Virus genome (UHGV): UHGV-0062447
Strand: one strand, 5' to 3'
DNA length: 26,556 bases
Origin: a virus
Shown here: positions 2,471 through 24,733 of the stretch, one piece after another
How the letters are laid out: every line of letters starts with the position of its first letter
Numbering within the stretch: the first letter of the stretch is position 1
Program-made: the position numbers and the translations under genes
The notes under the pieces: generated by a model
The model's database searches: none
Told to the model about the DNA's origin: nothing
The model's input: the letters and a program-made list of their open reading frames with translations, nothing else

Positions 2471-2816
2471 TCTCTGCTCCTGTTGATACTGAAAGGGACA
2501 CAGGCACACCGTTATTCCGCCGCCCGGTCAGCTCCACCACCATTGAACCGTCAAAATTGCTGTTAATAGTGATGGAATCCAGCGTCAGCCGTGGCTCCCA
2601 GCGACTCAGTGCCACATACACAGCCGACATAACCTGCAGGCGTAACGCCGGATTTTGTGGCTGATCTATCAGTGCCGACAGCAGGGAACCATATTCCCGA
2701 CGGGCAATGCGGCTACCCTGCGGCGTCAGCAGAATGTCCCGCACCGACTGGCGCAGATGGTCAATATCAGTAATGGCTTTACCGCTGGTATTGTTCATCC
2801 CGCTATAAAGCGTCAT
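2457..2816 (-). CDS. W: Baseplate wedge protein W (gp25/GPW family)
   Basis: 119-aa ORF, ATG at 2814-2816 overlapping V stop; size and position match P2 gpW (about 115 aa). Confidence 0.75.
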   Translation of the reverse strand: MTLYSGMNNTSGKAITDIDHLRQSVRDILLTPQGSRIARREYGSLLSALIDQPQNPALRLQVMSAVYVALSRWEPRLTLDSITINSNFDGSMVVELTGRRNNGVPVSLSVSTGAENGSD

Positions 2817-3391
2817 ACCGGGCCTCCGGTTGTGTCGCCGCCTTTCAGGACGCCAGTATGCTGATGCGCATCAACCACGATCCCGTTAGAACTCATCGCT
2901 CCGCCGCCCTGGGTAACGCCACCATTGATCACCACTTCGCTGTTAATGCGCGTGCGGTCAGCCTCCAGTACAAACTCACTGGTTTTCAGGGTGATGTTGC
3001 CAGCGGCCTCAATGACCATTGATTTGATGCCCCTGACATACCAGCGCCCGGTGGCGGGTTCGTATTCAAACCAGCCACCGTCAGGATGTTCTGTCACGCA
3101 GGCGTCCGCCGACGTCGACGGTGGCGCGAACTGATTCGAATAGATGGCGGGTAACGCAAAGGCTGTTTCCAGATTGCCGCCCAGACTAAGCAGCACCACC
3201 TGCTCACCTTCCGATGGTCGCCACCATGTGCGGGCATTCCCGGCACGCAGCGTCAGCCAGCTGATCCAGTTGGTTTCAAGCTCGCCCGTTTTCACCCGGC
3301 AAAGCCAGTTCTCCCGGTCCACTTCGGTGACTACCCCAGTGCGGATCAGGTTGGTGATAAGGCGCATGATTTCGGTTAGTTGTGCGTTCAT
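2813..3391 (-). CDS. V: Baseplate spike/hub protein V
   Basis: From ATG at 3389-3391: MNAQLTEIMRLITNLIRTGVVTEVD...WWRPSEGEQVV...HQHTG... aligns with P2 gpV as recalled; the ORF-track upstream extension (36 codons) is probably not translated. Confidence 0.85.
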   Translation of the reverse strand: MNAQLTEIMRLITNLIRTGVVTEVDRENWLCRVKTGELETNWISWLTLRAGNARTWWRPSEGEQVVLLSLGGNLETAFALPAIYSNQFAPPSTSADACVTEHPDGGWFEYEPATGRWYVRGIKSMVIEAAGNITLKTSEFVLEADRTRINSEVVINGGVTQGGGAMSSNGIVVDAHQHTGVLKGGDTTGGPV

Positions 3392-3437
3392 AGGGTTAGG
3401 TTGCACGGACCTTGAATCTATGGCATCAATACGTCCT

Positions 3438-3455
3438 TGTGTGGTAAATGACACA
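3438..3455. promoter_or_regulatory. TGT-N12-ACA dyad (P2 Ogr / 186 B late-activator-type site) upstream of V
   Basis: Sequence TGTGTGGTAAATGACACA read directly; P2 late promoters carry TGT-N12-ACA upstream of the -35 region. Spacing to the V start (about 55 bp to the ATG) is shorter than expected, so tentative. Confidence 0.3.
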
Positions 3456-3486
3456 AATACAATTCCAATCGAAGAAAGGTAAAAGA

Positions 3487-4017
3487 ATGAGCCATCCAAT
3501 TGATTATTACGCTATAGAAGAACACGCAAGAATAATTGAGCAATTATGCTGTTCATCTGAATTTTATTTACAGCGTATATATTCCACACAGAAAGTATAT
3601 GATGGTTCTATAGTAACTGAATTTGAAATGGAGGAGTTATCGTACAACGGATGGTTGGAATATACCATTAGCAACAATCTTATTAGCCTTTGTACAAAAC
3701 TACGAATTCTCCAAGACACTAATGAACATGAGTGGAACCCAGATTACTCACCTGAGAAAGAAGCATTTGAAGAACATGAAAATATACTTTTTGTTATAGA
3801 TGGTCATGTTAAAGGTTCTATACGCGAATGCTGCAATAAAATTATTCACGCATTAAGTTTTGAGTTAACAAAAAAGACCGGCAAAAATGGAATAAAATAT
3901 TGGGATGGTTCTATTATTGCTTCTGGGGTTCAAAACAAAAAAAACTGGAAAATTAAAATAGACCTTTTCCCTTTTTGCCAAAGCATAAAAAGTTATTTAA
4001 GTTTATTAAGTGCGTAA
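3487..4017 (+). CDS. Hypothetical protein (176 aa), low-GC cargo gene between V and S on the opposite strand
   Basis: ORF 3448..4017; preferred start ATG 3487 preceded by AAAGG (gaaaggtaaaagaATG); alternative ATG at 3448. Coding sequence is very AT-rich relative to flanking core genes. No motif recognised. Confidence 0.65.
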   Translation: MSHPIDYYAIEEHARIIEQLCCSSEFYLQRIYSTQKVYDGSIVTEFEMEELSYNGWLEYTISNNLISLCTKLRILQDTNEHEWNPDYSPEKEAFEEHENILFVIDGHVKGSIRECCNKIIHALSFELTKKTGKNGIKYWDGSIIASGVQNKKNWKIKIDLFPFCQSIKSYLSLLSA

Positions 4018-4022
4018 ACATT

Positions 4023-4475
4023 CTAATTTTTCATCAAAAAATACTTTAAAAGTAAATCTCTTACTTCATTTTCAGTATGTTCATTTAAACCCAGCAATTT
4101 TCGGGATGGATACTTAATGACTCCCCCCTTTGGACTGACGCGATCGCGCAGGCCGTAATGATGAACGCGGGCAATGCGCTGCACCTTACCTTCAAACTGT
4201 ACGCTGGCAGAATCCGCGCTGGCGGCGGTTTTCAGGTATTTTGTGGTGCGCAGCTTTGCAAACATCTGACGTTTGATGCGCCCTTTTTTACTTCGTGCTG
4301 TTACCCGTCGCGGTTCATAGCTGCTGCCGTCAGGGTTGCGCTGCATCCTGATATTCTGCTGCTGTGTCCGGCGCAGTTCCTGCGCCAGCTGGCGCATCAT
4401 GCGGCTTCTGGCGGCTGGTTCCAGATTCGCCAGCAAGGCACTCAGCCAGTCGTCCACTTTCTGCAGTTCAGCCAC
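4023..4475 (-). CDS. S: Tail completion protein S
   Basis: 150-aa ORF with GTG start at 4473-4475 overlapping R stop; gpS-like translation and position. The last ~35 codons (4023-4130) are AT-rich. Confidence 0.8.
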   Translation of the reverse strand: MAELQKVDDWLSALLANLEPAARSRMMRQLAQELRRTQQQNIRMQRNPDGSSYEPRRVTARSKKGRIKRQMFAKLRTTKYLKTAASADSASVQFEGKVQRIARVHHYGLRDRVSPKGGVIKYPSRKLLGLNEHTENEVRDLLLKYFLMKN

Positions 4476-11745: not shown

Positions 11746-12773
11746 TGGGAAAGAGTAAGAAGAACCGCGCTGCGGCGACGAAACAGCTCCAGCTTAAAAA
11801 CCAGACTACAGCCGAAGCATTCAGCTTCGGCGATCCCGTTCCTGTTCTGGACCGCCGAGAACTGCTGGACTATGTGGAATGCGTACAGATGGATCGCTGG
11901 TATGAGCCGCCCGTCAGCCTTGACGGACTGGCACGAACCTTCCGCGCCGCCGTGCATCACAGCTCACCAATTGCGGTGAAATGCAACATTCTGACCAGTA
12001 CCTACATCCCTCACCCGCTGCTCAGCCAGCAGGCTTTTTCACGTTTTGTGCAGGACTATCTGGTATTTGGTAACGCCTACCTGGAGAAACGCACGAACCG
12101 CTTCGGTGAAGTTATCGCCCTTGAGCCTGCTCTGGCAAAATACACCCGACGCGGGTTAGACCTGGATACCTACTGGTTTGTACAATACGGCATGACTACG
12201 CAGCCGTATCAGTTCACGAAAGGCAACATTTTTCATCTGATGGAACCGGACATCAACCAGGAGATCTACGGCCTGCCCGGTTATCTTTCTGCAATTCCGT
12301 CAGCTCTGCTCAACGAGTCCGCCACGCTGTTCCGCCGCAAGTATTACATTAACGGCAGTCATGCAGGCTTCATCATGTACATGACCGATGCAGCGCAGAA
12401 CCAGGAGGATGTGAACAACCTCCGCAATGCGATGAAAAGCGCCAAAGGTCCTGGTAACTTCCGTAACCTGTTTATGTACTCGCCTAACGGTAAAAAGGAC
12501 GGGCTTCAGATTATTCCTCTGTCAGAAGTCGCGGCAAAGGATGAATTTTTGAATATCAAGAACGTGAGCCGGGATGACATGATGGCAGCACACCGAGTGC
12601 CGCCGCAAATGATGGGGATAATGCCGAATAATGTTGGGGGATTTGGGGATGTGGAGAAGGCTAGTAAGGTTTTTATGCGTAATGAATTGATACCGCTACA
12701 AAACAGAATAGAAGAACTCAATAAATGGCTCAAAGATGACATAATAAAATTCATGCCATACAGTTTCATATAA
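11745..12773 (+). CDS. Q: Portal (capsid vertex) protein Q
   Basis: 342 aa from ATG 11745; P2 gpQ-like; the last ~110 bp of coding sequence are markedly AT-rich. Confidence 0.85.
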   Translation: MGKSKKNRAAATKQLQLKNQTTAEAFSFGDPVPVLDRRELLDYVECVQMDRWYEPPVSLDGLARTFRAAVHHSSPIAVKCNILTSTYIPHPLLSQQAFSRFVQDYLVFGNAYLEKRTNRFGEVIALEPALAKYTRRGLDLDTYWFVQYGMTTQPYQFTKGNIFHLMEPDINQEIYGLPGYLSAIPSALLNESATLFRRKYYINGSHAGFIMYMTDAAQNQEDVNNLRNAMKSAKGPGNFRNLFMYSPNGKKDGLQIIPLSEVAAKDEFLNIKNVSRDDMMAAHRVPPQMMGIMPNNVGGFGDVEKASKVFMRNELIPLQNRIEELNKWLKDDIIKFMPYSFI

Positions 12774-12778
12774 AACTA

Positions 12779-12799
12779 AGGGCCGAATACCTCGGCCCT
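12779..12799 (-). terminator. Rho-independent terminator hairpin (8-bp stem AGGGCCGA/TCGGCCCT) with U-tract on the minus-strand transcript
   Basis: Stem-loop read directly, immediately 3-prime of the 557-aa minus-strand gene; the T-run on the minus strand overlaps the last codons of Q. Confidence 0.6.
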
Positions 12800-12804
12800 C
12801 TACA

Positions 12805-14478
12805 TTAAGATTTATGGCTAAAGAGTATACCTGTAACAGAACGTTGATAGGCATCAAGCTTCTCTTGCCTCTGCTTAAATTTAGATTTGATATCACTAAT
12901 ACTCGGAATACCTATTACTCCAAGGCCTGCACTTAACGTCGCTAAAGTAGTATTGCCAGTCAGCGCTCCAGCAATTGCTATAGCACCATTTGCGATACAT
13001 GGTAGGACATCTAGTCCGTAAATTCTCAATTTCTCTTTTTGGGCTTTTGCAAGAATCCTTTGATGTTCAATAAAAGCCCGGTCTACATTATCAATTACTT
13101 TTTGCGTTGTCCTCGAAAAGCTCTCTGCCGAAGAATTGATTAAAGAGTCAACACCATTTGATAAGATGGATCTTACATCCTCCATCAATTTGTTACGTCT
13201 CAACTCAATTATTTTATTGACCGGTACATTTCCTAACCATGAAAAACCATCTTGCATACCAGCAGATAACGCATGAACCATATGCAAATTTTTTAGTTCA
13301 ATATCATTGACATCAAAATTAAGAGATTCGTACTCAATAAGCCAAGTATAATAGAGCCAAGATGTGTCTGCATTTATATATGGAGTACTACCAAGTTCTT
13401 GTGCATTACATTTTGCTGAATAGGCTTGCGGCATTCTTCCAATGCAGGAAAGGAAAACCTCCATTCCAGCATGATCACCAACAACATTACGTGATATTCT
13501 TTTTTTATCAGATAGTAGTTTTTCTAATTGAGTTTTTGGATTTAGCCCCCATGCTGTATCAAAAATAAGTCTATCTGCTCTCTTAATATTTTTAAGAACA
13601 GCATCAATATCATTCATCGAATAACTAAAATCTTGAAATTCATCGTAGCTTTCGAACCGTCGATCATAGAGATATTGCGCATGAGTCAGAGCATAAGGCT
13701 CACAAAAACTCATCAAATTTTTTTTGCTCTCAGTTTCAAAATCTCTTCTATCCGGCAAAATTAATACTATTGCTGGCTCTATATCTTCAAGCGCTACTTC
13801 TTTATATGTCATACATGTTAGGACATGCTTTAGAAGTATCCTTGTAAACTCAGCCTTATCTGACTTTTCATAGAGACGACCGACTCTTAATATAGGACAT
13901 GGAAGTGAAATAGTATCAACATACAACCCTGCAATAGAGACAGCATTCTCATCAAATGCAGGAAATAAGTCACCAGAAAAATTAGCTTTAAACTGAGAAC
14001 CATCCTGCAAATGTATTACACCAATATCGGATGTTACCTGCCAAAACTCTATTACCTGATTATATAACTCAGGAAAAACATCTTCTATTTGCTTAACATA
14101 TTCTTCTTGTTGAGAAAAAAAACTTGATGCTTTATGTGGCGTTGCATTAGTTTTTTTCATCAGATAAAACAACTCGCCAAAATTACTAAAAAGAATATTA
14201 AAGTAAGAACTTTGCAAGTCCTGAATAGAGTATTTGTTTTTTATATCTTCTCTTTCTAAAAAGTGATTAACCGCTGCTCCCATAGCCTTTATTCTGCCAT
14301 CAACAGTAGAAGGGTCAACTTTACCATCCTGTCGCAGCCTTATTCTTTTAAAACTTTCAATAAAACCTTCTACAAGATGATGAGCTATTTTTAGTTTTCC
14401 CGCTTCCAGTTGTTGCTTAATGAGAAAAACACGCTCAGTTAAATCGTCTACATATTCCTCATCTTGATATTTTTCCAT
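12805..14478 (-). CDS. Hypothetical 557-aa protein with C-terminal hydrophobic/glycine-rich hairpin; low-GC cargo gene between Q and cos
   Basis: Single long ORF, ATG 14476-14478 with GGAG 6 nt upstream; very AT-rich; C-terminal segment ...LPCIANGAIAIAGALTGNTTLATLSAGLGVIGIPSI... is hydrophobic; no Walker motif or other domain recognised by eye. Confidence 0.8.
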   Translation of the reverse strand: MEKYQDEEYVDDLTERVFLIKQQLEAGKLKIAHHLVEGFIESFKRIRLRQDGKVDPSTVDGRIKAMGAAVNHFLEREDIKNKYSIQDLQSSYFNILFSNFGELFYLMKKTNATPHKASSFFSQQEEYVKQIEDVFPELYNQVIEFWQVTSDIGVIHLQDGSQFKANFSGDLFPAFDENAVSIAGLYVDTISLPCPILRVGRLYEKSDKAEFTRILLKHVLTCMTYKEVALEDIEPAIVLILPDRRDFETESKKNLMSFCEPYALTHAQYLYDRRFESYDEFQDFSYSMNDIDAVLKNIKRADRLIFDTAWGLNPKTQLEKLLSDKKRISRNVVGDHAGMEVFLSCIGRMPQAYSAKCNAQELGSTPYINADTSWLYYTWLIEYESLNFDVNDIELKNLHMVHALSAGMQDGFSWLGNVPVNKIIELRRNKLMEDVRSILSNGVDSLINSSAESFSRTTQKVIDNVDRAFIEHQRILAKAQKEKLRIYGLDVLPCIANGAIAIAGALTGNTTLATLSAGLGVIGIPSISDIKSKFKQRQEKLDAYQRSVTGILFSHKS

Positions 14479-14579
14479 AAACGCTCCATTAAAATATTTA
14501 ATAATGCATATAAGAATAGTTAATAATATTTACAGTAACTATATCACATTAGATCCAGATTGTTACACTGTTGCGCGCG

Positions 14580-14598
14580 CTCGTATCCCCGCCACGCC
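14580..14598 (-). other. Putative cos site (cohesive-end sequence)
   Basis: Minus-strand sequence GGCGTGGCGGGGATACGAG; the first 13 nt match the P2/186 cohesive-end sequence as I recall it (GGCG[A/T]GGCGGGGAAAGCA[C/T]), followed by a CGCGCGC tract as in the P2 left end. Location between Q and A is as expected. Confidence 0.5.
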
Positions 14599-14640
14599 TG
14601 CCCGCTTTATGTAGCGGTTTTCATGCGCCTGCATGACATA

Positions 14641-14667
14641 AGCAAAAGCCCGCCACTCCTGGCGGGC
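14641..14667 (-). terminator. Rho-independent terminator (GCCCGCC-ACTCCT-GGCGGGC stem-loop, T-run on minus strand)
   Basis: Read directly; lies about 95 bp 3-prime of the 203-aa minus-strand gene. Confidence 0.65.
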
Positions 14668-14758
14668 CTCAGCTAAAACGATCCTCAAACGATCATGCGG
14701 ATTCATGCGGCATAGACATGCACAATCTCCAAAGCGGGCATCGAGACTTTTTGGAAAC

Positions 14759-15370
14759 CTACGTAACCACAGTTAATGTGTGCATCCTGTCTCGAATTGC
14801 ATCACACGTCTCATCAAAAAGCTTGGTGATGGTTGTACAGTTCAACTCCGCCTCTTTCCAATAATTTTGCCCGTCAAATTCTGGATCGCTATGCTTAAAC
14901 GATATTGACTCTGAAAGGCATTCCTTCCGGAAACGGTCCAAGATTATATAAACCTCTGGTGAGATGAACGGTTTGTTAGATTCAACACTTGTAACAAAAG
15001 TGTTAAATGCATCAAAAAAAACTTTCAACCTTCTAAATTTTCTCTCTTCAAATGGTTCGTTGGGGTCAACATGATCCAGCGCAGGCCTCAGCTTAAGCAC
15101 GCTTTCTCTGGTTTCAAACATCGAATTCCAAATGAGACTATATGCTGATAACTCCTTATCAAAATACGCTTTCGTTACATAAACAGAATTGTCTAACTTA
15201 GCCTTTATTCTTTCATTAGTTGCACTCAGTTGTGATTGAAATTCAGCAATATCTTTGTTTAGCCGCGACTTATATCTTTCTAAATAAACTTTCCCGATCC
15301 AAACAAATATGCCAGATGCAACAAAAGACACCCCACCCAACGAAGCCAGAACTTTAAAGACTAAATCCAT
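14759..15370 (-). CDS. Hypothetical 203-aa membrane-anchored protein (N-terminal TM helix); low-GC cargo gene between cos and the SOS operon
   Basis: ATG 15368-15370 preceded by AGGTGGGGG; N-terminus MDLVFKVLASLGGVSFVASGIFVWIG is a predicted TM helix; AT-rich; nothing recognised in the remainder. Confidence 0.8.
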   Translation of the reverse strand: MDLVFKVLASLGGVSFVASGIFVWIGKVYLERYKSRLNKDIAEFQSQLSATNERIKAKLDNSVYVTKAYFDKELSAYSLIWNSMFETRESVLKLRPALDHVDPNEPFEERKFRRLKVFFDAFNTFVTSVESNKPFISPEVYIILDRFRKECLSESISFKHSDPEFDGQNYWKEAELNCTTITKLFDETCDAIRDRMHTLTVVT

Positions 15371-15399
15371 TGCGCCCCCACCTGCAAAAATAGTATTCC

Positions 15400-15427
15400 A
15401 TTATAAGCTAATACATTTTTAATCAAA
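15400..15427 (-). promoter_or_regulatory. Sigma70-like promoter for the 203-aa gene (-35 TTTGAT, 16-bp spacer, -10 TATAAT)
   Basis: Read on the minus strand: ...cctgTTTGATtaaaaatgtattagctTATAATgg...; about 25-30 nt upstream of the ATG. Confidence 0.5.
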
Positions 15428-15634
15428 CAGGGGATAATTCGCGTCAACCTCATCACTTCTCTGCTCTACCCTAGTGACTTCCATCAAAAACCCCAGGCCG
15501 TCATATAGCGAAACGGGGAATTCCAGCTCAAGCCAGAAGCAGTCTTCATAGATGCGGCCCAACCAAAAACCTCCGCCACACTCCTTTGGGCGTTGAAAGA
15601 AGACCCAGTCGCCAAGGGTTAAACGTTCCAGCAC
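15419..15634 (-). CDS. Hypothetical small protein (71 aa, GTG start); possible third cistron of the SOS operon
   Basis: ORF-track entry only; no ATG start and a weak RBS. Confidence 0.3.
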   Translation of the reverse strand: MLERLTLGDWVFFQRPKECGGGFWLGRIYEDCFWLELEFPVSLYDGLGFLMEVTRVEQRSDEVDANYPLFD

Positions 15635-15752
15635 CTAGCCCCGATAAATAATCTGGTGATTACTGTCTTTTTTACCCATGGCTAACGCCTCGCTACTCTC
15701 GTTGTTCAACCTTGCTGACGTCAGATTCAAGTTCTTACATCAGGAACGTTCC

Positions 15753-15986
15753 TTAGTGCAGCCAGCTGTCGTCTTCCCAAACCTGTTGCATAATTTCCAT
15801 CACCCGCTTTTTGTCTTCATCAAGCTTTAAGCCACTCAGCTCAACGCCGTTTGCCGCCCCTTTACGGATGCGGATAGCGGTCTTGGGATAGATGGGTTGC
15901 AGGTTGCGGTAAAGCTCGGACTCCAGAGCGTCCAGGGTAGACTGGCTAATCTTCTGCTCTTTATCGATCATTATTTCAATGCGCAT
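15753..15986 (-). CDS. DinI-family protein (77 aa), 186 Tum C-terminal-like
   Basis: From ATG 15984-15986: MRIEIMIDKEQKISQSTLDALESELYRNLQ...GAANGVELSG...EDKKRVMEIMQQVWEDDSWL parallels E. coli DinI (MRIEVTIAK...DALAGELSRRIQ...AAANNLSVIG...EDKQRISEILQETWE) as I recall it; SD GAGGTGA upstream. Confidence 0.8.
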   Translation of the reverse strand: MRIEIMIDKEQKISQSTLDALESELYRNLQPIYPKTAIRIRKGAANGVELSGLKLDEDKKRVMEIMQQVWEDDSWLH

Positions 15987-15996
15987 AAAAGTCACC

Positions 15997-16185
15997 TCAA
16001 CTGATGACATCCATTGAGCGGTTGTATTCGTGGGTTCTGATTTTTGCCATGAGTTCATCTGTTAGTTCAGAAACCCACTGCAAAGCCAGCCCCTTCTCTT
16101 CATCACTACACTCACTAGCCGCTACAAGCTTAAGAAAAAAATCAATGCGCTGGAGCTTCAAAGACTCCAAAAAATAGTCCTGCAT
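15997..16185 (-). CDS. Small protein (62 aa), first cistron of the LexA-controlled operon
   Basis: ATG 16183-16185 preceded by GGAGGAAAAATG; ends 10 nt before the dinI-like ATG. Confidence 0.6.
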   Translation of the reverse strand: MQDYFLESLKLQRIDFFLKLVAASECSDEEKGLALQWVSELTDELMAKIRTHEYNRSMDVIS

Positions 16186-16228
16186 TTTTCCTCCTATGAC
16201 ACCACAAGCAATACTGTATACATAACCA

Positions 16229-16244
16229 CTGTTTATATTTACAG
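16229..16244. promoter_or_regulatory. LexA box (SOS operator) CTGTTTATATTTACAG
   Basis: Perfect CTGT-N8-ACAG with AT-rich centre, read directly, inside the promoter region of the small-ORF/dinI-like operon. Equivalent to the LexA-repressed p95/tum promoter of phage 186, located between A and cos. Confidence 0.8.
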
Positions 16245-16338
16245 TATATAATAATCTTACTGATGTAAAACGTTTTTTTACGTTCATCAGCCTGATATGC
16301 CTGGTATTATTAAGAGCACGAATTGTTAATCAGCGTAA

Positions 16339-18753
16339 TTAATACATGTTCCGCCATTTATCATCCTCCTGCAGACGCTGGTTCCGATAGAAGATACGCA
16401 GGCCTGCTCCTGACGGAATACTGCCACCGCGAAGGAGCAACTCGACCTCTTTCTCGCTGCCATCAAATCCTCTGGACTTCAGTTCATAGACAAGCTGCTG
16501 TCGCTGATGGTCTGTAATTCGCTGTTTGTAGTCTTTACGCCGTTTCGGTTTCACCAGGCGTAACCTTGCTGCCAGTTCCCGGCGATCTTTTTTGCTCATA
16601 CTGTGCAGGTAATCGTGCAACTCCTTGTCATTCATACGGGTAATATCCGTTCTGGAGTCCCCATCAGCTGATTTGTTTTTCCCTTGTTGGTTCAAATTTT
16701 CAGCAAGGGGACAGTTATTGCCACGAGTCCAAGGGGCGCAAGCGCCCTGGTCGGCTGCCGCCTCCTGAACGTCAACGGCCTTACGAACCATTTTCCACTT
16801 CACCGCATGAGTGCAGATCTTGCCCTCTGCAATGGGTGACCAGATGCCATAAATACGAATACCGTGATCGCCATAGGCGGTTGGCTCTTCGTTGATTTCA
16901 TAAGCGGTTCTGATGAGGTGATATTTACGGGGAACCAGTACGCCGCCCTGCTTCATGATATAGGTGGCAAAACAACCAGCATCAGCAGCAGCCAGAATGG
17001 CATCAAGGCGCGGGTTATCCAGTACCGGCGCACCTGCTTTTTTGTCACCCTGTTGCCTTGCCGCCTGACCAGCCAGCAATCGCAGTTCACGGTAAGCCTG
17101 ACGCCCCGGAATGCCAAAGAAGCGGAATTGCTGAACACGATGCAGAGACGCCCAGGCATTAACGTATTCAGCGTTATCACGCAGGGATTTACCCGTTTCC
17201 TTGCTGATCTCCCCAGCCAGACCACGCCCGTCAATGTTCTTACTGATGTATTTCGCGATATAGCTTGTTGGCGTACCTTTGCGCGGGTTTATCAGCTCAG
17301 ACTTAAAGCGTGGTCCCGTGTTATTGCCCAGCTCCTCGCGGTCTTCACGGATGGCAAACTTACGCAGTAATGCAGTGATGGCGCGGCGGTCTTTTTTACG
17401 CATGAAACACATGAGATGCCAGTGCACAGTACCGTCATGATGCGGCTCAGCTACCCGCACGCCATACCAGCGCAACTCGGCTTTATGCATAGCCTTACGA
17501 AATGCAGCAAACATGCCGACCAGATAATCGCTACTTTGTCTTACCGTCGCGTTTGTCCAGGTCGGGTTTGGTCTGCCGTTATTGAGCGTGGAATGGAAAC
17601 GCGACGGACAGGTGATAGTGTAGAAAACGGCACAGTCACTGCGCATTTCCGCGATAAGCTCCAGACCTTTAACACAGGCCATCATCTCATTGCGGCGATG
17701 CGCCGGGTTGCTGCTGCTGGCGTTTACCACATCTTCCATATCCAGCGTGTCGCCGTCTTCGTTCACCAGTTCATGAGAACGAAAAAACTCCAGCGACTTA
17801 CGGCGCTGCTCACGTTTATGCATCACGGCTTCATAGCTGACATAGGGGGATGCTTTTTTGCTGACCAGGCAGACAGCACGCAACTGCTCTTCCCGCCATT
17901 CGCAACGCATCTTCCATAATTTCCGATACCACCAGTCGGCACACAACATACGCGCCAGCGAACCCGGGATGAGTTCATAGGGCACTGGTTTGCGGCGGTT
18001 TCTTTTCCGACGAAGTTTCTCAAACGCAGGCGGGATAACATCCAGACGCAGGGTTTCCGCTGCCACCTTTTCCCATGTCTTGCGGATTTCTTCTGGCTTA
18101 ACGTCATCGGTGGCATACAAGTCACCACAAGCGTCCTCAAGACACATGCTCATATGCGCTGCTACCAGGGTGGACAGGCGTTTCACCTGATCCTGGCTCA
18201 TTTCAGGCAGGATCAGCAGACCCTCCAGCCCTTGATGGCTTGCCATAAAACGGAAAGAAACAGATAGCTGACTGTCACGTACACAATCCAGTCGCTCCAG
18301 ACATGGCTTAATCGTCTCACGCAAATAGCGGGAATAAGCCTTTGGCCTGCCCAGGCTGCTGAAGTATTCAATACGTTGCATCAGCGGCTTGCTGATATGG
18401 GAAGGCTGGGCGTTTACGTCCGCCAGAATGACCATGTCCGGATTAAAACGCTGCTGCTCATGCGCCAGCTTTGCCCGGCTAATGAGCTTATCCTGCTCCA
18501 TTTCGCGCTGGACAGGATCACGGGATTCATTAAAGAAATAACGCTCCCAGACCTGCTCACTCAGTGCCTCGCGGCGCAGTTGTTCCTGCTCGTTATCGGC
18601 AGCGTACAGAGTGATCAGGTTTGAAAGTGCAGACTCCGGCGCAACTTCCGCCGGGTCCAGATAAGGGTTAATGGCCTTTTTCGAGCCGTTCCATGAAAAT
18701 GCTGCGGCGGCCTCGTTAAAGCCGCTGCAATTGTTCATATCGTCATGACTCAT
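16339..18753 (-). CDS. A: Replication initiation protein A (rolling-circle endonuclease), P2/186 gpA-like
   Basis: 804 aa from ATG 18751-18753 (overlaps dam stop as ATGA); large protein in the expected position, with translation recognised as P2/186 gene A family. Confidence 0.85.
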
Positions 18754-19607
18754 ACACACACTCCGTACACGGCAGAACTATCCACGCCACGCGAAGGATC
18801 AAATCCCAACCAGCAGCTCGGCCCGGAAACAGCAATGATTTCTGTTGCAGATTTACCCTCGCCAGCTGACACGCCGATGCTGCGTTTTGCCTTGATATAG
18901 TGGTGAGTAAAATTGCGATACAGCGAACGAATCAGGGATGTGTCATTGTTAGAAACAATGACCGGATGTCCTTCTGATGACCGATGTTCAAGAATGGATG
19001 CCAGGTGATACTGGTCATCTTCAGTGAAACCATCAGTGTGATAGCCGGAAAACGTACCGTCATACGGCGGATCGCAATACACCACATCCCCCACCTGCAG
19101 CATCGCCAGCGTTTCATCAAAGCTCGCGCAGATAAACGTTGCCCGCTGGGCTTTCTCTGCAAATGCGCGAATTTCTTTTTCAGGGAAATACGGATTTTTA
19201 TAATTACCGTAGGGAATGTTGAAATACCCGCTCTTGTTATAGCGACATAAACCACGGTAACCGTGACGATTGAGATACAGGAAATATATCGCCTTCATGA
19301 AATCAGTAATTTCAGTTGAGTAATTAAACTCCTGTCTTATGTTGTAATAAGCCAGCTCACTGTTTGCTTCCTCAAATAAAACTTTGGCACGAGATATAAA
19401 CGCTTCGCAATCAGCGGCAATCTTTTTATAGAGGTTGATTAAATCAGGATTAATATCCGCAACCAGATAGCTGGGGTAATCCGTCGCCATCATCACAGCA
19501 CAAGAACCCGCGAAAGGTTCAACCAGTCGCGGGCCAGCAGGAAGGTATTTTTTCAGTTCGGACATAATGGCGGTTTTATTACCCGCCCATTTCAGGATGG
19601 TGCTCAT
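18750..19607 (-). CDS. dam: DNA adenine methyltransferase (Dam-like, N6-adenine MTase)
   Basis: From ATG 19605-19607: [23 protein letters not shown]...FAGSCAV... and a DPPY catalytic motif ([14 protein letters not shown]). Confidence 0.85.
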
Positions 19608-19831
19608 ACAGCACCTCCGTTGTAATGTTTGCCTTTCAGCTCTGCGATTTCCTGGCAGGTAATGCAAAGCTGCACTCCAGGAATGGCACGGCGGCGTGCT
19701 GGCGGAATTGGCGCTTCACACTCAACGCAAAGCACGCGGGACACGCCCGGCGTTTTGGCGCGGGCAGCACGGATATGACGCTGGCGTTCTTCTTCAACGC
19801 GCTGCTGTACGAGATCCATTGCATCAGCCAT
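19604..19831 (-). CDS. TraR/DksA-family C4 zinc-finger protein
   Basis: 75 aa with CVEC...CITC motif; ATG overlaps the upstream stop; stop overlaps dam start. Confidence 0.75.
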   Translation of the reverse strand: MADAMDLVQQRVEEERQRHIRAARAKTPGVSRVLCVECEAPIPPARRRAIPGVQLCITCQEIAELKGKHYNGGAV

Positions 19832-20064
19832 CAGTGGATCTCCTGCGCTTCGTTCTGGATTGCTTCAGCAGTCACACGCAGCAGTTCTGCCACTTCGACG
19901 TGGTTTAGCTGGCGGGATGTGATATGACACGCCAGGCTATCAAGGCGAGCTGCCATTGCTTCAGCCCTTGCCCGGCGTTCTTCCAGACGAGCCTCTGTCA
20001 GTAAAATATTAAGCCCTGCATCATCCGGTCCGGTTTTAGTCGTGAGGGTTTCAATATTACGCAT
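19831..20064 (-). CDS. Hypothetical early-operon protein (77 aa)
   Basis: ATG 20062-20064 with GGAG 9 nt upstream; the ORF-track TTG extension is unlikely. Confidence 0.6.
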   Translation of the reverse strand: MRNIETLTTKTGPDDAGLNILLTEARLEERRARAEAMAARLDSLACHITSRQLNHVEVAELLRVTAEAIQNEAQEIH

Positions 20065-20131
20065 AATCAATTCTCCTGAATTTAGATAAAGGGATGCCTG
20101 GCGGGTTTACGCCATGAATTTCATTAGTTGG

Positions 20132-20473
20132 TTAATTCGGCATGGTTAGCCGTCTGGGAAATAAGCTCACCACTGCACGAAAATGATTCATTGCTTTAAT
20201 CAGCTCCCGCTTTTCGTCAGTGGTCAGCTCATTAATGCTGATGCTATGACGTTCAGCTGGAATTTTTGCCATAAAGAATATGGCAGCCAGTGCCCGTTTA
20301 TTTTGTTCATTATTGATATCCCGTGGATCACGCATATCTTTAATAAACCGCTCAAGCTCTGACTCAATATTCAGGCCAAAAACTTTCGCTCTTAATTCCG
20401 CAATGTGATTAAGTCCATTCAGGCGTTCACCGGGGCTTAATGGAACAGTCGCCGCAGCGCCATTAATTGCCAT
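20132..20473 (-). CDS. Hypothetical early-operon protein (113 aa)
   Basis: ORF with ATG 20471-20473; phage-backbone GC content. Confidence 0.6.
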   Translation of the reverse strand: MAINGAAATVPLSPGERLNGLNHIAELRAKVFGLNIESELERFIKDMRDPRDINNEQNKRALAAIFFMAKIPAERHSISINELTTDEKRELIKAMNHFRAVVSLFPRRLTMPN

Positions 20474-20495
20474 AATTCATATCCCCAAAACGCAA

Positions 20496-20720
20496 CTATC
20501 GTTCTTTGTTCTTACGGTAACGCTCAAGGGGAGATACATTTTTTCGTACCGTCTCTTTAACCTGCTCTCCCCGTAAAAACGTCCCATCCTTTAGTGTGAA
20601 AAAGTAACTGCCATCGCCCGACAACGACGGATAACAACAGAGCAAATCATCTTCAGGTACTGAATAACTATCCCCTCTGTAACGAAACTGATAAACCACT
20701 TCACTTTCTGCCGCATACAT
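20496..20720 (-). CDS. Hypothetical early-operon protein (74 aa)
   Basis: ATG 20718-20720 preceded by GGAGAAAG; overlaps out of frame with an 80-aa ORF (20591..20833) that starts inside the direct repeat. Confidence 0.5.
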   Translation of the reverse strand: MYAAESEVVYQFRYRGDSYSVPEDDLLCCYPSLSGDGSYFFTLKDGTFLRGEQVKETVRKNVSPLERYRKNKER

Positions 20721-20810
20721 TTGGACTTTCTCCGTTTCCTCGTGGTCACTTCAGACAGCAATTCATCTTGTGAATAACATGGATGCCAGCGTTTACCATC
20801 CTCACCCATG

Positions 20811-20870
20811 ATCCAGCCGTGACCGTAGTGCATTGCCGGGCTTTGTTTTACCAGCAGCGATGCAAATGAT
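20811..20870. repeat. 60-bp direct repeat, copy 1 (59/60 identical to 21614-21673)
   Basis: ATCCAGCCGTGACCGTAGTGCATTGCCGG[G/A]CTTTGTTTTACCAGCAGCGATGCAAATGAT read at both sites; a weaker GGATGCCA match lies about 25 bp further out at each copy. Confidence 0.9.
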
Positions 20871-20960
20871 TGTGCCGGGAATTTTTCTACACGCCCGGCG
20901 CGTGCCTCAGTGGTAGACTATTTGTGCTAACAATCATCTACCCCTCAAAGGAGAAAACTG

Positions 20961-21041
20961 ATGTCAGAAACAGACAACTTTCATGTACTCCCTCGCCCGG
21001 CTCCAGCACCTCAGCCTGAACCGGGGCAAGAGAAGAAATAG
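20961..21041 (+). CDS. Mini-ORF (26 aa, MSETDNFHVLPRPAPAPQPEPGQEKK) with a strong RBS, immediately upstream of the 2-TM protein gene
   Basis: AAAGGAGAAAACTG-ATG (consensus-like SD); stop TAG 9 nt before the next ATG. Not in the ORF track (too short). Confidence 0.4.
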   Translation: MSETDNFHVLPRPAPAPQPEPGQEKK

Positions 21042-21050
21042 GAATCCGGC

Positions 21051-21509
21051 ATGACTAAACAAAGCTCCGAATACTTCCAATTACACTACTGTTATTACCT
21101 TGAACTAATGACAGCAACGTTCCATGGTCGAGCTGATAAATTAATGACAGCAATCCAACTTATAAGCGGAACAGCTGTATTTGCTAATACAGGTCTGGAA
21201 TGGTTGTTCGCTTTTCCTGTTGTTGTAATCGCAACAATCCAACTTGTATGGCAACCAGCTATTATTGCGGAACGAGCAAGCGTACAAAGCCGACAATATG
21301 GTGAGTTGCTTTACGCCGAGGATGAATTGTCTCCACAGTTCATTGCACAAAAATTGAAAGCTTTGCATCACTCTGACTCCACAACATTCGGATCTTTGTT
21401 AAACCCTGCCTACAAAAGAGCTGCTATTGCCTGTGGTCGGGTTGACGATGTAAACCTCAGCTTCCAAGAAAAACTTTTCGCTTGGTTCGCAGGTTGTTTG
21501 CCACGTTAA
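21051..21509 (+). CDS. Hypothetical membrane protein (152 aa, two predicted TM helices), opposite strand to the early operon
   Basis: ATG 21051 with AGGAAT upstream; hydrophobic segments LMTAIQLISGTAVFANTGLEWLFAFPVVVIATIQLVW; lower GC than the surrounding backbone; followed by hairpin CCCCGG-N11-CCGGGG (21545-21567). Confidence 0.65.
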   Translation: MTKQSSEYFQLHYCYYLELMTATFHGRADKLMTAIQLISGTAVFANTGLEWLFAFPVVVIATIQLVWQPAIIAERASVQSRQYGELLYAEDELSPQFIAQKLKALHHSDSTTFGSLLNPAYKRAAIACGRVDDVNLSFQEKLFAWFAGCLPR

Positions 21510-23401: not shown

Positions 23402-24733
23402 ATGAGCACAGATATAACTTTCGATATACGTGATGAATATAAAAGAAAAGCCATTGCAGAAAAAATAATAAGTTTGCTAGAGTCTAATATTCCTGTTTCA
23501 CCTATGGTCATAGATGGGGACTGGGGGACTGGAAAAACAGAGTTTTCAAAAAAGTTAGCATCCTTAATTGAAATAAACTCGACCAATCATAAAGTAGTTT
23601 ATATAGATGCTTTTACTGAAGATCACAACGATGCTCCCATACTTACAATAATGGCCGCAATTGCAGCTCTATATAATAGCGATGAAAAAAAGGAATTAAT
23701 ATCTAAGGCATTGCCAGCCCTCAGATTCGGACTTAAGACTGTACTCAAAGCTGGTGCTGGTTGGGTATTAAAACAAAATGCGGATGAAATTAATGAGGAA
23801 TTTGAAGAGGTTATCAAAGACGCTGCAAATTCAGCTATCGATGGAACCATCGAGGCTCTGTTAGAAGATCATATCGAGGCACAAAAGAACGTTCTTGCTC
23901 TAAAAGAAGTACTAACCAAATTAGCTGGAGAAAGTAAACTAACAATAATTATAGATGAGTTAGACAGATGTAAGCCTAGTTTTGCCATTTCTATTATTGA
24001 AAATATAAAACATGTTTTTGATATAAAAAACATTAACTTTTTATTAATTGCAAACACAACTCAACTAAAAGCATCCATAAATCATATCTATGGCTCTTCT
24101 GTAGACTCCAACCGTTATCTTGACAAATTTATAAAATTTACATACAGCCTTCCTGTTACCTTTAAGGAAGATAATTATAATGACACTTTAACTTCCAAAA
24201 ATCATTGGATGATGCTATGTGAGCAATCTGAAAGGCTGACCGCTGCAGTAGAAGCCAGCGAAGATATTTTCTTACAGTTCATTGAAAGTAGAAAATTATC
24301 ATTACGTGAGGTTGAAACACTTGCTAGATATGTTGAAATATACCAACTACTATCAGGCGACAAAATTAGCAACAAATATATTTATGGATATTGTTATTAC
24401 AGGACTCTAGCGATAATAATCTACACTTTTAACCGAGAGTTAGCTCTCAACTTTCTTGAAGATAAAGTTGATGCTCAATCAATCATGAAATTGTTTGGTT
24501 TGTCTAAATTTTCATATCAAACAAGTGAATATAATGTAGATAATTATGAATATGCTATATTTGGAATAGTTTACAAATACTTATCTGAAAACTCATCTCT
24601 TTTACCTACTGAGGAAAATATAAAAAGACAATGGGCAGAAATGAGTGAATACCATTTTTTAAAAGGTAGTGGCGGTATTGGTGAACCAACAAATATTGTG
24701 AAAGATGCTTTAAAAGTTTTTTTACTTCAGTGA
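23402..24733 (+). CDS. KAP-family P-loop NTPase (443 aa)
   Basis: Walker A in the KAP-typical form GDWGTGKT and Walker B IIIDELDRC (DxLDRC); AT-rich; ATG 23402 preceded by AGGAA. Confidence 0.75.
   Translation: MSTDITFDIRDEYKRKAIAEKIISLLESNIPVSPMVIDGDWGTGKTEFSKKLASLIEINSTNHKVVYIDAFTEDHNDAPILTIMAAIAALYNSDEKKELISKALPALRFGLKTVLKAGAGWVLKQNADEINEEFEEVIKDAANSAIDGTIEALLEDHIEAQKNVLALKEVLTKLAGESKLTIIIDELDRCKPSFAISIIENIKHVFDIKNINFLLIANTTQLKASINHIYGSSVDSNRYLDKFIKFTYSLPVTFKEDNYNDTLTSKNHWMMLCEQSERLTAAVEASEDIFLQFIESRKLSLREVETLARYVEIYQLLSGDKISNKYIYGYCYYRTLAIIIYTFNRELALNFLEDKVDAQSIMKLFGLSKFSYQTSEYNVDNYEYAIFGIVYKYLSENSSLLPTEENIKRQWAEMSEYHFLKGSGGIGEPTNIVKDALKVFLLQ

Follow-up and report, generated by a model that had tools for sequence, protein, structure and literature searches.

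A single-gene cargo cassette exchanged between the V and S genes of a P2-like prophage, and its candidate role in anti-phage defence

What is a 176-amino-acid (aa) open reading frame (ORF) doing between the genes for the baseplate spike gpV and the tail completion protein gpS of a P2-like prophage, on the strand opposite to both? The question is raised by virus genome UHGV-0062447, a stretch of 26,556 nucleotides (nt; ‘the window’) that holds most of a P2-like (Elveevirus-type) Escherichia coli prophage. We find that the ORF is a real, selected and transcribed single-gene cargo; that it sits on a horizontally exchanged cassette, which brings its own version of the P_V promoter region and its own gpS C-terminal tail; and that its product belongs to a sizeable, unannotated protein family, the alignment of which reveals an invariant motif of enzyme-like character. 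The reading we favour, at a little short of even confidence, is that this exchanged cassette carries a stand-alone abortive-infection-type anti-phage effector that benefits the lysogen.

Looking at composition, we see the fraction of guanine and cytosine (GC) drop from 0.55-0.60 to 0.27-0.35 over ~3400-4100 (32-33% for the tract overall), with the cargo ORF itself at 0.32 against 0.55-0.60 for the backbone; a composition foreign to the phage. At third codon positions (GC3) the cargo ORF stands at 0.26, V at 0.66 and codons 1-114 of S at 0.64, with the last 36 codons of S falling to 0.28. The original prediction, made from the letters alone, had described an opposite-strand, low-GC ORF of this length between V and S, with an AT-rich tract running on into the last ~35 codons of S; the ORF call and both profiles agree with it. 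Cargo ORF and S are convergent, their stop codons being 5 nt apart. An in-frame ATG upstream (position 3448) would extend the product to 189 aa, as in the LF82 annotation and in phrog_18838; because the residues MSHPI start every homologue, however, we take 176 aa to be the right product. Only the missing annotation speaks for a non-functional ORF that arose by chance in AT-rich junk DNA or is decaying there. The probability of a 176-codon open frame at the local base composition is 3e-7, and the longest open run in 2000 shuffles reached 131 codons against the 189 observed; together with the selection, family size, predicted fold and transcription described below, this refutes the idea, to which we give a negligible weight.

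How far does the foreign DNA extend? In an empty site, such as that of Klebsiella phage 4LV2017 and many Escherichia coli prophages, V and S lie 68 bp apart. DNA homology to 4LV2017 stops at ~3408, ~17 nt after the start codon of V, and restarts at ~4133, inside S. Residues 1-114 of gpS are identical to those of 4LV2017 except for A73T; from residue 115 onwards only 14 of 36 positions match. The last 111 nt of S are 32% GC compared with 58% in the remainder of the gene, and this same stretch has a GC of 0.31-0.38 in all four carrier lineages versus 0.55 in the empty-site S; cargo gene and S tail form an old linkage group. The earlier suggestion that the 3′ end of S was exchanged along with the cargo holds up well, and the interval then proposed, 3392-4130, coincides with the exchanged segment almost to the base, 3392 being the first intergenic nucleotide (V ends at 3391). 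Six other cargos found between S and V behave likewise, each with a distinct S C-terminal tail of reduced GC (0.28-0.47) and differing breakpoint codons. The cassette moves among related prophages, the V and S sequences on either side serving for homologous recombination. As a separate observation, the last 15-36 residues of gpS, an essential tail-completion protein, seem to be freely replaceable.

Intact copies of the gene are present in relatives. At 98.4-100% identity, 22 of 5426 complete E. coli genomes have the cassette; in the phage collection it is confined to Escherichia phage Cartapus, which is the prophage of LF82. Orthologues occupying the same S/V slot of P2-like prophages share 84% (an unassigned contig), 74% (Salmonella) and 60% (Enterobacter) amino-acid identity. 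Measured against these, the ratio of nonsynonymous to synonymous substitution rates (dN/dS) of the cargo gene is ~0.1 (pairwise 0.08-0.12), in the same range as that of S and V, and its synonymous divergence tracks that of S; the substitution pattern of a gene kept by purifying selection.

When is the gene expressed? Prophage Cartapus provides a 98%-identical orthologue, LF82_787/CARTA_14. (LF82_789, one of the two published Cartapus morons, was considered as the cargo gene and ruled out; it lies at 2759532-2760143.) In the RNA-seq data for LF82 (PMC9928086, S1 table; values are log2(fpkm+5), fpkm being fragments per kilobase per million mapped reads), the values for conditions B1, B6 and MB1 are 5.1-6.0 for the orthologue against 2.3-3.3 for V and S (2.32 corresponds to zero reads); under MB6 the orthologue stands at 4.4-4.6 and V has risen to 4.1-4.3. 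Judged by this orthologue, with reads taken irrespective of strand, transcription of the cargo gene goes on in the lysogen when its late neighbours are silent; LF82_787 stands well above them in four of five conditions.

This timing bears on one alternative, namely that the gene serves the phage itself: in counter-defence, against satellites (anti-P4), or as a modulator of its own lytic/lysogenic cycle. Such a role would suit a position amid the late genes and beside the P_V promoter, as well as the long retention of the gene in one slot over the P2-like lineages of E. coli, Salmonella and Enterobacter; anti-defence genes are, moreover, found in 28 of 1511 P2-like phages. It sits poorly with transcription while the late genes are silent, and with homologues outside phages, among them those in chromosomal integron arrays, for which a phage-cycle role makes little sense. 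The gene is also missing from most otherwise near-identical prophages and, for that reason, is taken to be dispensable for the phage cycle. Overall, we consider a phage-benefit gene improbable.

The region between V and the cargo gene suggests how the two transcription programmes might be coordinated. It contains a TGT-N12-ACA dyad, centred 55.5 nt from V’s first base; in P2 the annotated activator site is just as far from the transcription start of V and, by analogy with P2 biology, the dyad is probably an Ogr-type late-activator site. The relatives (Salmonella, Enterobacter and empty-site) all have a dyad of their own, whether they carry cargo or not. In the Enterobacter orthologue the candidate −10 hexamer overlaps the dyad rather than adjoining it; a consensus scan of 3300-4200 returned neither a full sigma-70 promoter nor a terminator. 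Speculatively, binding of the activator might occlude the cargo’s putative promoter where this abuts or overlaps the dyad and, with no terminator between the two genes, convergent transcription of S could allow the late programme to shut the cargo gene off.

The cargo protein (20.5 kDa, acidic with an isoelectric point of 5.4, soluble) has no signal peptide, transmembrane or hydrophobic segment; in PHROGs it matches only phrog_18838, an entry of unknown function. A word-indexed search found 17 relatives, and a profile search of 1.84 billion cluster representatives 482 at an expect value (E) of up to 0.001, or 111 at E up to 1e-10. Full-length matches among the 150 listed are mostly 170-210 aa long and align end to end. 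In an alignment of 56 diverse members, which share 18-42% identity with the query, R73, N117 and H121 never vary, and D77, R113, K118, I119, A122, G147 and W154 are conserved in at least 90%. The family signature reads [LI]RExCNKIIHA; its N[K/R]xxH core follows RExC, or a close variant, in ~150 of 165 family sequences, and the signature is near-unchanged even among members that are otherwise 20-30% identical.

An AlphaFold2 model, built with the 17-sequence alignment, scores 90 for the predicted local distance difference test (pLDDT) and 0.86 for the predicted template modelling score (pTM). Helices are predicted at residues 7-21, 24-34, 45-78, 89-95, 112-120 (the motif helix) and 160-175, with strands at 101-105, 124-131, 137-149 and 152-159. 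Foldseek gave nothing at E up to 0.001 against the PDB or BFVD, and sequence searches of the PDB, with the protein alone or with the family profile, returned nothing meaningful. Since R113, N117 and H121 stand at positions i, i+4 and i+8 of a helix, they should share one face. We propose that the protein could be a latent, metal-independent ribonuclease (RNase) of HEPN-like chemistry, switched on by an infecting phage, in which these three residues would line one face of the short helix, and R73 and D77, from the long helix, would complete the site. We make this suggestion less firmly than that of protection as such.

What else occupies this slot? We compared a 4.3-kb block, running from J to the lysis genes, with the complete E. 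coli genomes, taking the joined-match span in 60 rows drawn evenly from 1071 records. The S/V slot is empty in 30 of the 60, holds the present cassette in 2 and another cargo in 25, and is uninformative in 3; about half of the sampled slots are therefore occupied, by at least 12 types of cargo (at least 11 besides the present one), several of them unannotated. The annotations of the others comprise DUF6216, TIR, an AAA ATPase with DUF4435, GmrSD, SIR2 and an Sll1717 P-loop ATPase, along with a P-loop NTPase, PcfJ, DUF6602, FRG and several hypothetical proteins. Six other cargos were confirmed to lie exactly between V and S, and all of these are 31-37% GC. According to PADLOC, the ATPase/DUF4435 pair is AriA and AriB of PARIS (6e-40 and 2e-24), the SIR2 cargo is ThsA/LmuA-like and the GmrSD cargo NsnA/PD-T4-2-like; the DUF6216, Sll1717 and P2 Orf30 proteins have no PADLOC match. 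By analogy with these identifiable neighbours in position, the cargo may protect the lysogen against other phages, a proposition that we would hold at about even strength.

The same census also bears on the likeliest of the alternatives, that of a lysogenic-conversion or host-fitness gene: a regulator, a stress or metabolic enzyme, or a competition immunity factor of benefit in some niche. Expression in the lysogen, higher in B1/B6 medium than in overnight LB (lysogeny broth), would agree with this, and P2-like hotspots are also home to neaT, to cytolethal distending toxin and to partition systems. In the slot itself, however, the identifiable cargos of sister prophages are overwhelmingly of defence type; the protein is cytoplasmic, lacking a signal peptide or transmembrane segment, and its polar motif looks catalytic rather than like a DNA-binding signature. 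We regard a host-fitness role as possible, though on the whole unlikely.

The analyses of P2-like hotspots that we consulted cover the gpA-gpQ, Z/fun and tail-CI positions, with one 2026 paper making looser mention of hotspots ‘within the tail genes’ and ‘downstream of GpL’; among these papers we found no account of the S/V slot as a separate hotspot for defence. That the slot is variable was already known, Orf30 of P2 having long been annotated as non-essential. The neaT gene of CFT073, considered as a precedent for the slot, was set aside, as it occupies the G/FI (Z/fun) position. Two further observations concern DUF6216: a P2-like prophage remnant in E. coli B-lineage laboratory strains (B / C41(DE3)) has a DUF6216 protein in the S/V slot, and at locus L023 the DUF6216 cargo (1934-2740) and S share 59 nt at their 3′ ends.

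Moving away from the slot, where else is the family found? In Aliivibrio (L009) and Vibrio hepatarius (L010) the gene takes its place as a cassette within an array whose ORFs are small, point the same way and are separated by repeats of 120-132 nt that start with TAACAA and end with GCGTTA, the pattern of VCR-type attC sites. The copy on the V. anguillarum megaplasmid p292 (L042) lies in a similar array, with attC-like repeats upstream, and that of a Pseudoalteromonas (L011) has 38-nt repeats on both sides. From the repeat pattern, which bounds a single ORF, the distant members in the Vibrionaceae are, to judge by sequence, integron cassettes. Just downstream of the p292 copy (L042, 6238-7710) lies the gene for a group II intron reverse transcriptase/maturase, which may belong to an attC-targeting intron. 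In Aliivibrio sp. S4MY1 the cassette directly upstream (L009, 3736-4866) codes for a peptidase U49 of Lit type (PADLOC Lit, 2e-23), Lit being one of the classical proteases of abortive infection and found here as a cassette. In Pseudoalteromonas aliena (L012) the family member adjoins an operon with a GajA/LmuB-like ATPase, beyond which lies an IS110 transposase.

Returning to P2-like elements, a high-GC viral contig has a member of 29% identity in the interval from gpD to the CI repressor, another recognised P2 hotspot. On this contig, from IMG/VR (L039 1874-4546, ~62% GC), the CI repressor, two unannotated ORFs (387 and 220 aa) and then the family member stand on the same strand with overlapping ends; the arrangement may represent a three-gene operon expressed in lysogeny. 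Copies at 80-85% identity occur in a Chloroflexia metagenome-assembled genome (MAG; L003/L013), in P. aliena (L012), in a Dokdonia MAG (L014) and at locus L005; their presence in different phyla reflects either recent cross-phylum transfer or binning error/MAG contamination. We count the distribution of the family over integron cassettes, P2 hotspots and cross-phylum copies, a mobility typical of defence genes, in favour of an anti-phage role. Three results go beyond what was originally predicted: the motif is a near-invariant signature of several hundred clusters, distant members are carried in integrons, and the slot elsewhere holds known defence genes.

These contexts also allow a third alternative to be weighed, in which the gene is a selfish toxin or addiction module, either a type I/III toxin-antitoxin (TA) system with an RNA antitoxin or a toxin curbed by antisense transcription of S. 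The motif is enzymatic-looking, antisense RNA is plausible given a convergent S whose stop lies 5 nt away with no terminator between, and TA cassettes are frequent in the chromosomal integrons of Vibrio. There is, however, no partner ORF in any context, and Rfam finds no RNA family in the window; in integrons and elsewhere the gene stands alone, away from any convergent S. Eight loci were compared and no neighbour is conserved, for which reason we treat the family gene as a one-gene unit; nor does the cassette have room for a partner gene. As TA and abortive-infection functions overlap, this alternative would in part merge with the effector reading we prefer; as a separate explanation, we think it improbable, slightly more so than a phage-benefit gene.

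Several observations weigh against the anti-phage effector as we propose it. In overnight LB, LF82_787 reads only 2.7-3.5, under the 5-fold cut-off for morons used by the authors (PMC9928086); it is on account of this low value that the gene is not listed as a moron. The cargo protein has no match in Pfam (E up to 1), NCBIfam or PADLOC-DB v2.0.0 (0 families, E up to 1), as the original prediction of no recognisable domain had anticipated, and Pfam searches with the 56 diverse members (E up to 0.1) gave scattered noise with no consistent family. All family members are named ‘hypothetical protein’ in the databases, and literature searches with the RefSeq accession and the PHROG identifier returned no papers. 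Reasoning from position is weak, in that DUF6216, PcfJ and hypothetical cargos, which carry no defence annotation, share the slot. Outside the phages most neighbours are without a defence match: PADLOC found nothing in ten further neighbours of distant homologues, so that the association with defence beyond P2-like phages comes down to the two contexts described above. Lastly, most integron cassettes are functionally unknown; a point that, with the lack of a defence model match, also speaks for a host-fitness role.

A further two points on this side of the balance emerge from a comparison with the HEPN RNases, represented by stand-alone Abi HEPN proteins and the HepT toxins (PDB 7ae2, 5yep). 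HEPN RNases act independently of metal, usually as dimers with a composite site. The likeness is that these too are small, possess a helical-bundle core (in the cargo, a predicted one), travel on mobile elements and have an invariant Arg/Asn/His cluster on one helix. The canonical HEPN motif is R-N-x3-H, and the N-x3-H spacing is the same in the cargo. The defining R-x4-6-H spacing is lacking: the cargo has R113-x7-H121, its Arg being displaced three residues upstream, and a Cys precedes N117 in most members. As to fold, HEPN proteins are all-alpha, four-helix up-and-down bundles with a long terminal helix and the motif where the last core helix begins whereas, in the cargo model, the motif helix is short (112-120) and appears to be followed by a three- to four-stranded sheet; considering secondary-structure elements only, the N-terminal half is helical, with strands spanning 124-159 and a C-terminal helix to close. 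It had been predicted that RECCNKIIH would fall short of a HEPN motif and this is what we find, both from the spacing and from the lack of a HEPN profile match in Pfam, PADLOC or the PDB profile search. HepT-type systems also have an MNT-type antitoxin as neighbour, and none lies beside the cargo family at the eight loci. HEPN-like chemistry is offered as a hypothesis, one that stops short of membership of the HEPN superfamily. The fullest version of our proposal, in which a new family of stand-alone abortive-infection nucleases with the present gene as its enterobacterial representative, combines a helical bundle and sheet with a shifted HEPN-like R-x3-N-x3-H site, is spread by integrons and by S/V as a little-described third or fourth defence hotspot, and is wired to the late switch through the promoter-dyad overlap and convergent S transcription, we consider distinctly unlikely as a whole.

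The remainder of the window shows that the prophage is a mosaic. E. coli ECamp52 (NZ_CP196304.1, L041) has an identical late block (100%) and the same cassette; the window was considered as collinear with it throughout, and this was rejected, as the other two hotspots differ. In ECamp52 these hold a PDC-S06 AAA ATPase (18942-21278; 8e-267) and PD-Lambda-1 (29493-31169; 2e-120), matches which consequently belong to ECamp52 and not to the window; the differences in cargo imply that the three hotspots shuffle independently. In the window itself, the corresponding positions are taken up by two further low-GC islands (Table 1). Among the complete E. coli genomes none covers at least 80% of 12400-16400, and neither the 557-aa protein of the second island nor the 443-aa protein of the third has a sequence match in the PDB.

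Table 1. Positions of the features discussed, numbered along the window
Feature	Position	Strand	Basis or content
gpV baseplate spike, left flank	2813..3391	-	PF04717 at 6e-18; Apex motif
V-to-cargo intergenic region, divergent control signals	3392..3486		sequence reading
Exchanged low-GC segment: P_V control region, cargo ORF and S 3′ end	3408..4133		alignment with 4LV2017 and Cartapus
TGT-N12-ACA dyad TGTGTGGTAAATGACACA, presumed Ogr-type late-activator site for P_V	3438..3455		pattern and P2 spacing
Candidate -10 hexamer TACAAT for the cargo gene, adjoining the dyad	3458..3463	+	inference only; no -35
Shine-Dalgarno-like AAAGG, 7 nt before the cargo ATG	3475..3479	+	direct reading
Cargo ORF, 176 aa, MSHPIDYY...LLSA	3487..4017	+	uncharacterised family of ~180-aa proteins (phrog_18838)
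Codons for R73-I-L-Q-D77, end of the long helix	3703..3717	+	R73 invariant, D77 at least 90%
Codons for R113-E-C-C-N117-K-I-I-H121, family signature	3823..3849	+	56-member alignment
gpS tail completion protein, whole gene	4023..4475	-	PF05069 at 7e-42
AT-rich gpS 3′ end (last 36 codons and stop), travelling with the cargo	4023..4133	-	GC, protein comparison
gpS conserved part (residues 1-114), right flank	4134..4475	-	identical to 4LV2017 gpS but for A73T
Second low-GC island (GC 0.33-0.44), portal-proximal gpQ-gpA hotspot: 557-aa and 203-aa ORFs	12805-14478; 14759-15370	-
Third low-GC island, CI-to-integrase: 443-aa ORF	23402-24733	+	‘P-loop NTPase fold protein’ in 38 E. coli genomes

Were the defence reading true, the cargo would constitute a compact, 531-bp, single-gene system unlike those catalogued, its conserved motif easing mutational tests; it would link two reservoirs of defence genes, integron cassettes and the hotspots of P2-like prophages, and would mark the S/V slot as productive for mining. 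Were it wrong, the gene would be one more hypothetical moron. The cargo-specific gpS tails, for their part, show how deep recombination endpoints reach into an essential structural gene.

How, finally, does the cargo compare with systems already known? The nearest in position is Orf30 of P2 (NP_046770, non-essential), and the P2 annotation matches the slot, strand and GC range that had been predicted: like the cargo, the gene lies between S and V, on the opposite strand and at low GC (0.31-0.37), and its product has no Pfam or PADLOC match. The two differ in length (260 versus 176 aa), and the best BLASTP alignment between them, at E 0.24 over 27 residues, amounts to no homology; the library and PDB searches likewise tied the cargo to no characterised protein. 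The 3′ end of the P2 S gene, unlike that of the window, is not markedly AT-rich (GC 0.50). The relationship is one of positional analogy only.

The feature that would define a type II toxin-antitoxin system, an adjacent antitoxin gene, is absent, there being no conserved neighbour across the eight loci. The phage-resistance cassettes of mobile and sedentary chromosomal integrons resemble the distant family members, which are likewise single ORFs with attC-like, VCR-type flanks and, in one case, a Lit-type neighbour; the copy in the window does not lie in an integron. Similar in kind are the validated single-gene or compact defence cargos of P2-like hotspots: old, tin, fun, the PD-T4, PD-T7 and PD-lambda systems and a DUF4238 protein (Rousset 2022; Vassallo 2022). 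Like these, the cargo is low in GC, patchily distributed, placed between conserved core genes and replaced by alternative cargos in sister prophages; unlike them, it occupies the S/V slot and has no homology to any PADLOC v2 model. In kind, then, it is an ordinary P2-like hotspot cargo, and its uncharacterised protein family a reasonable candidate for a new single-gene defence family.

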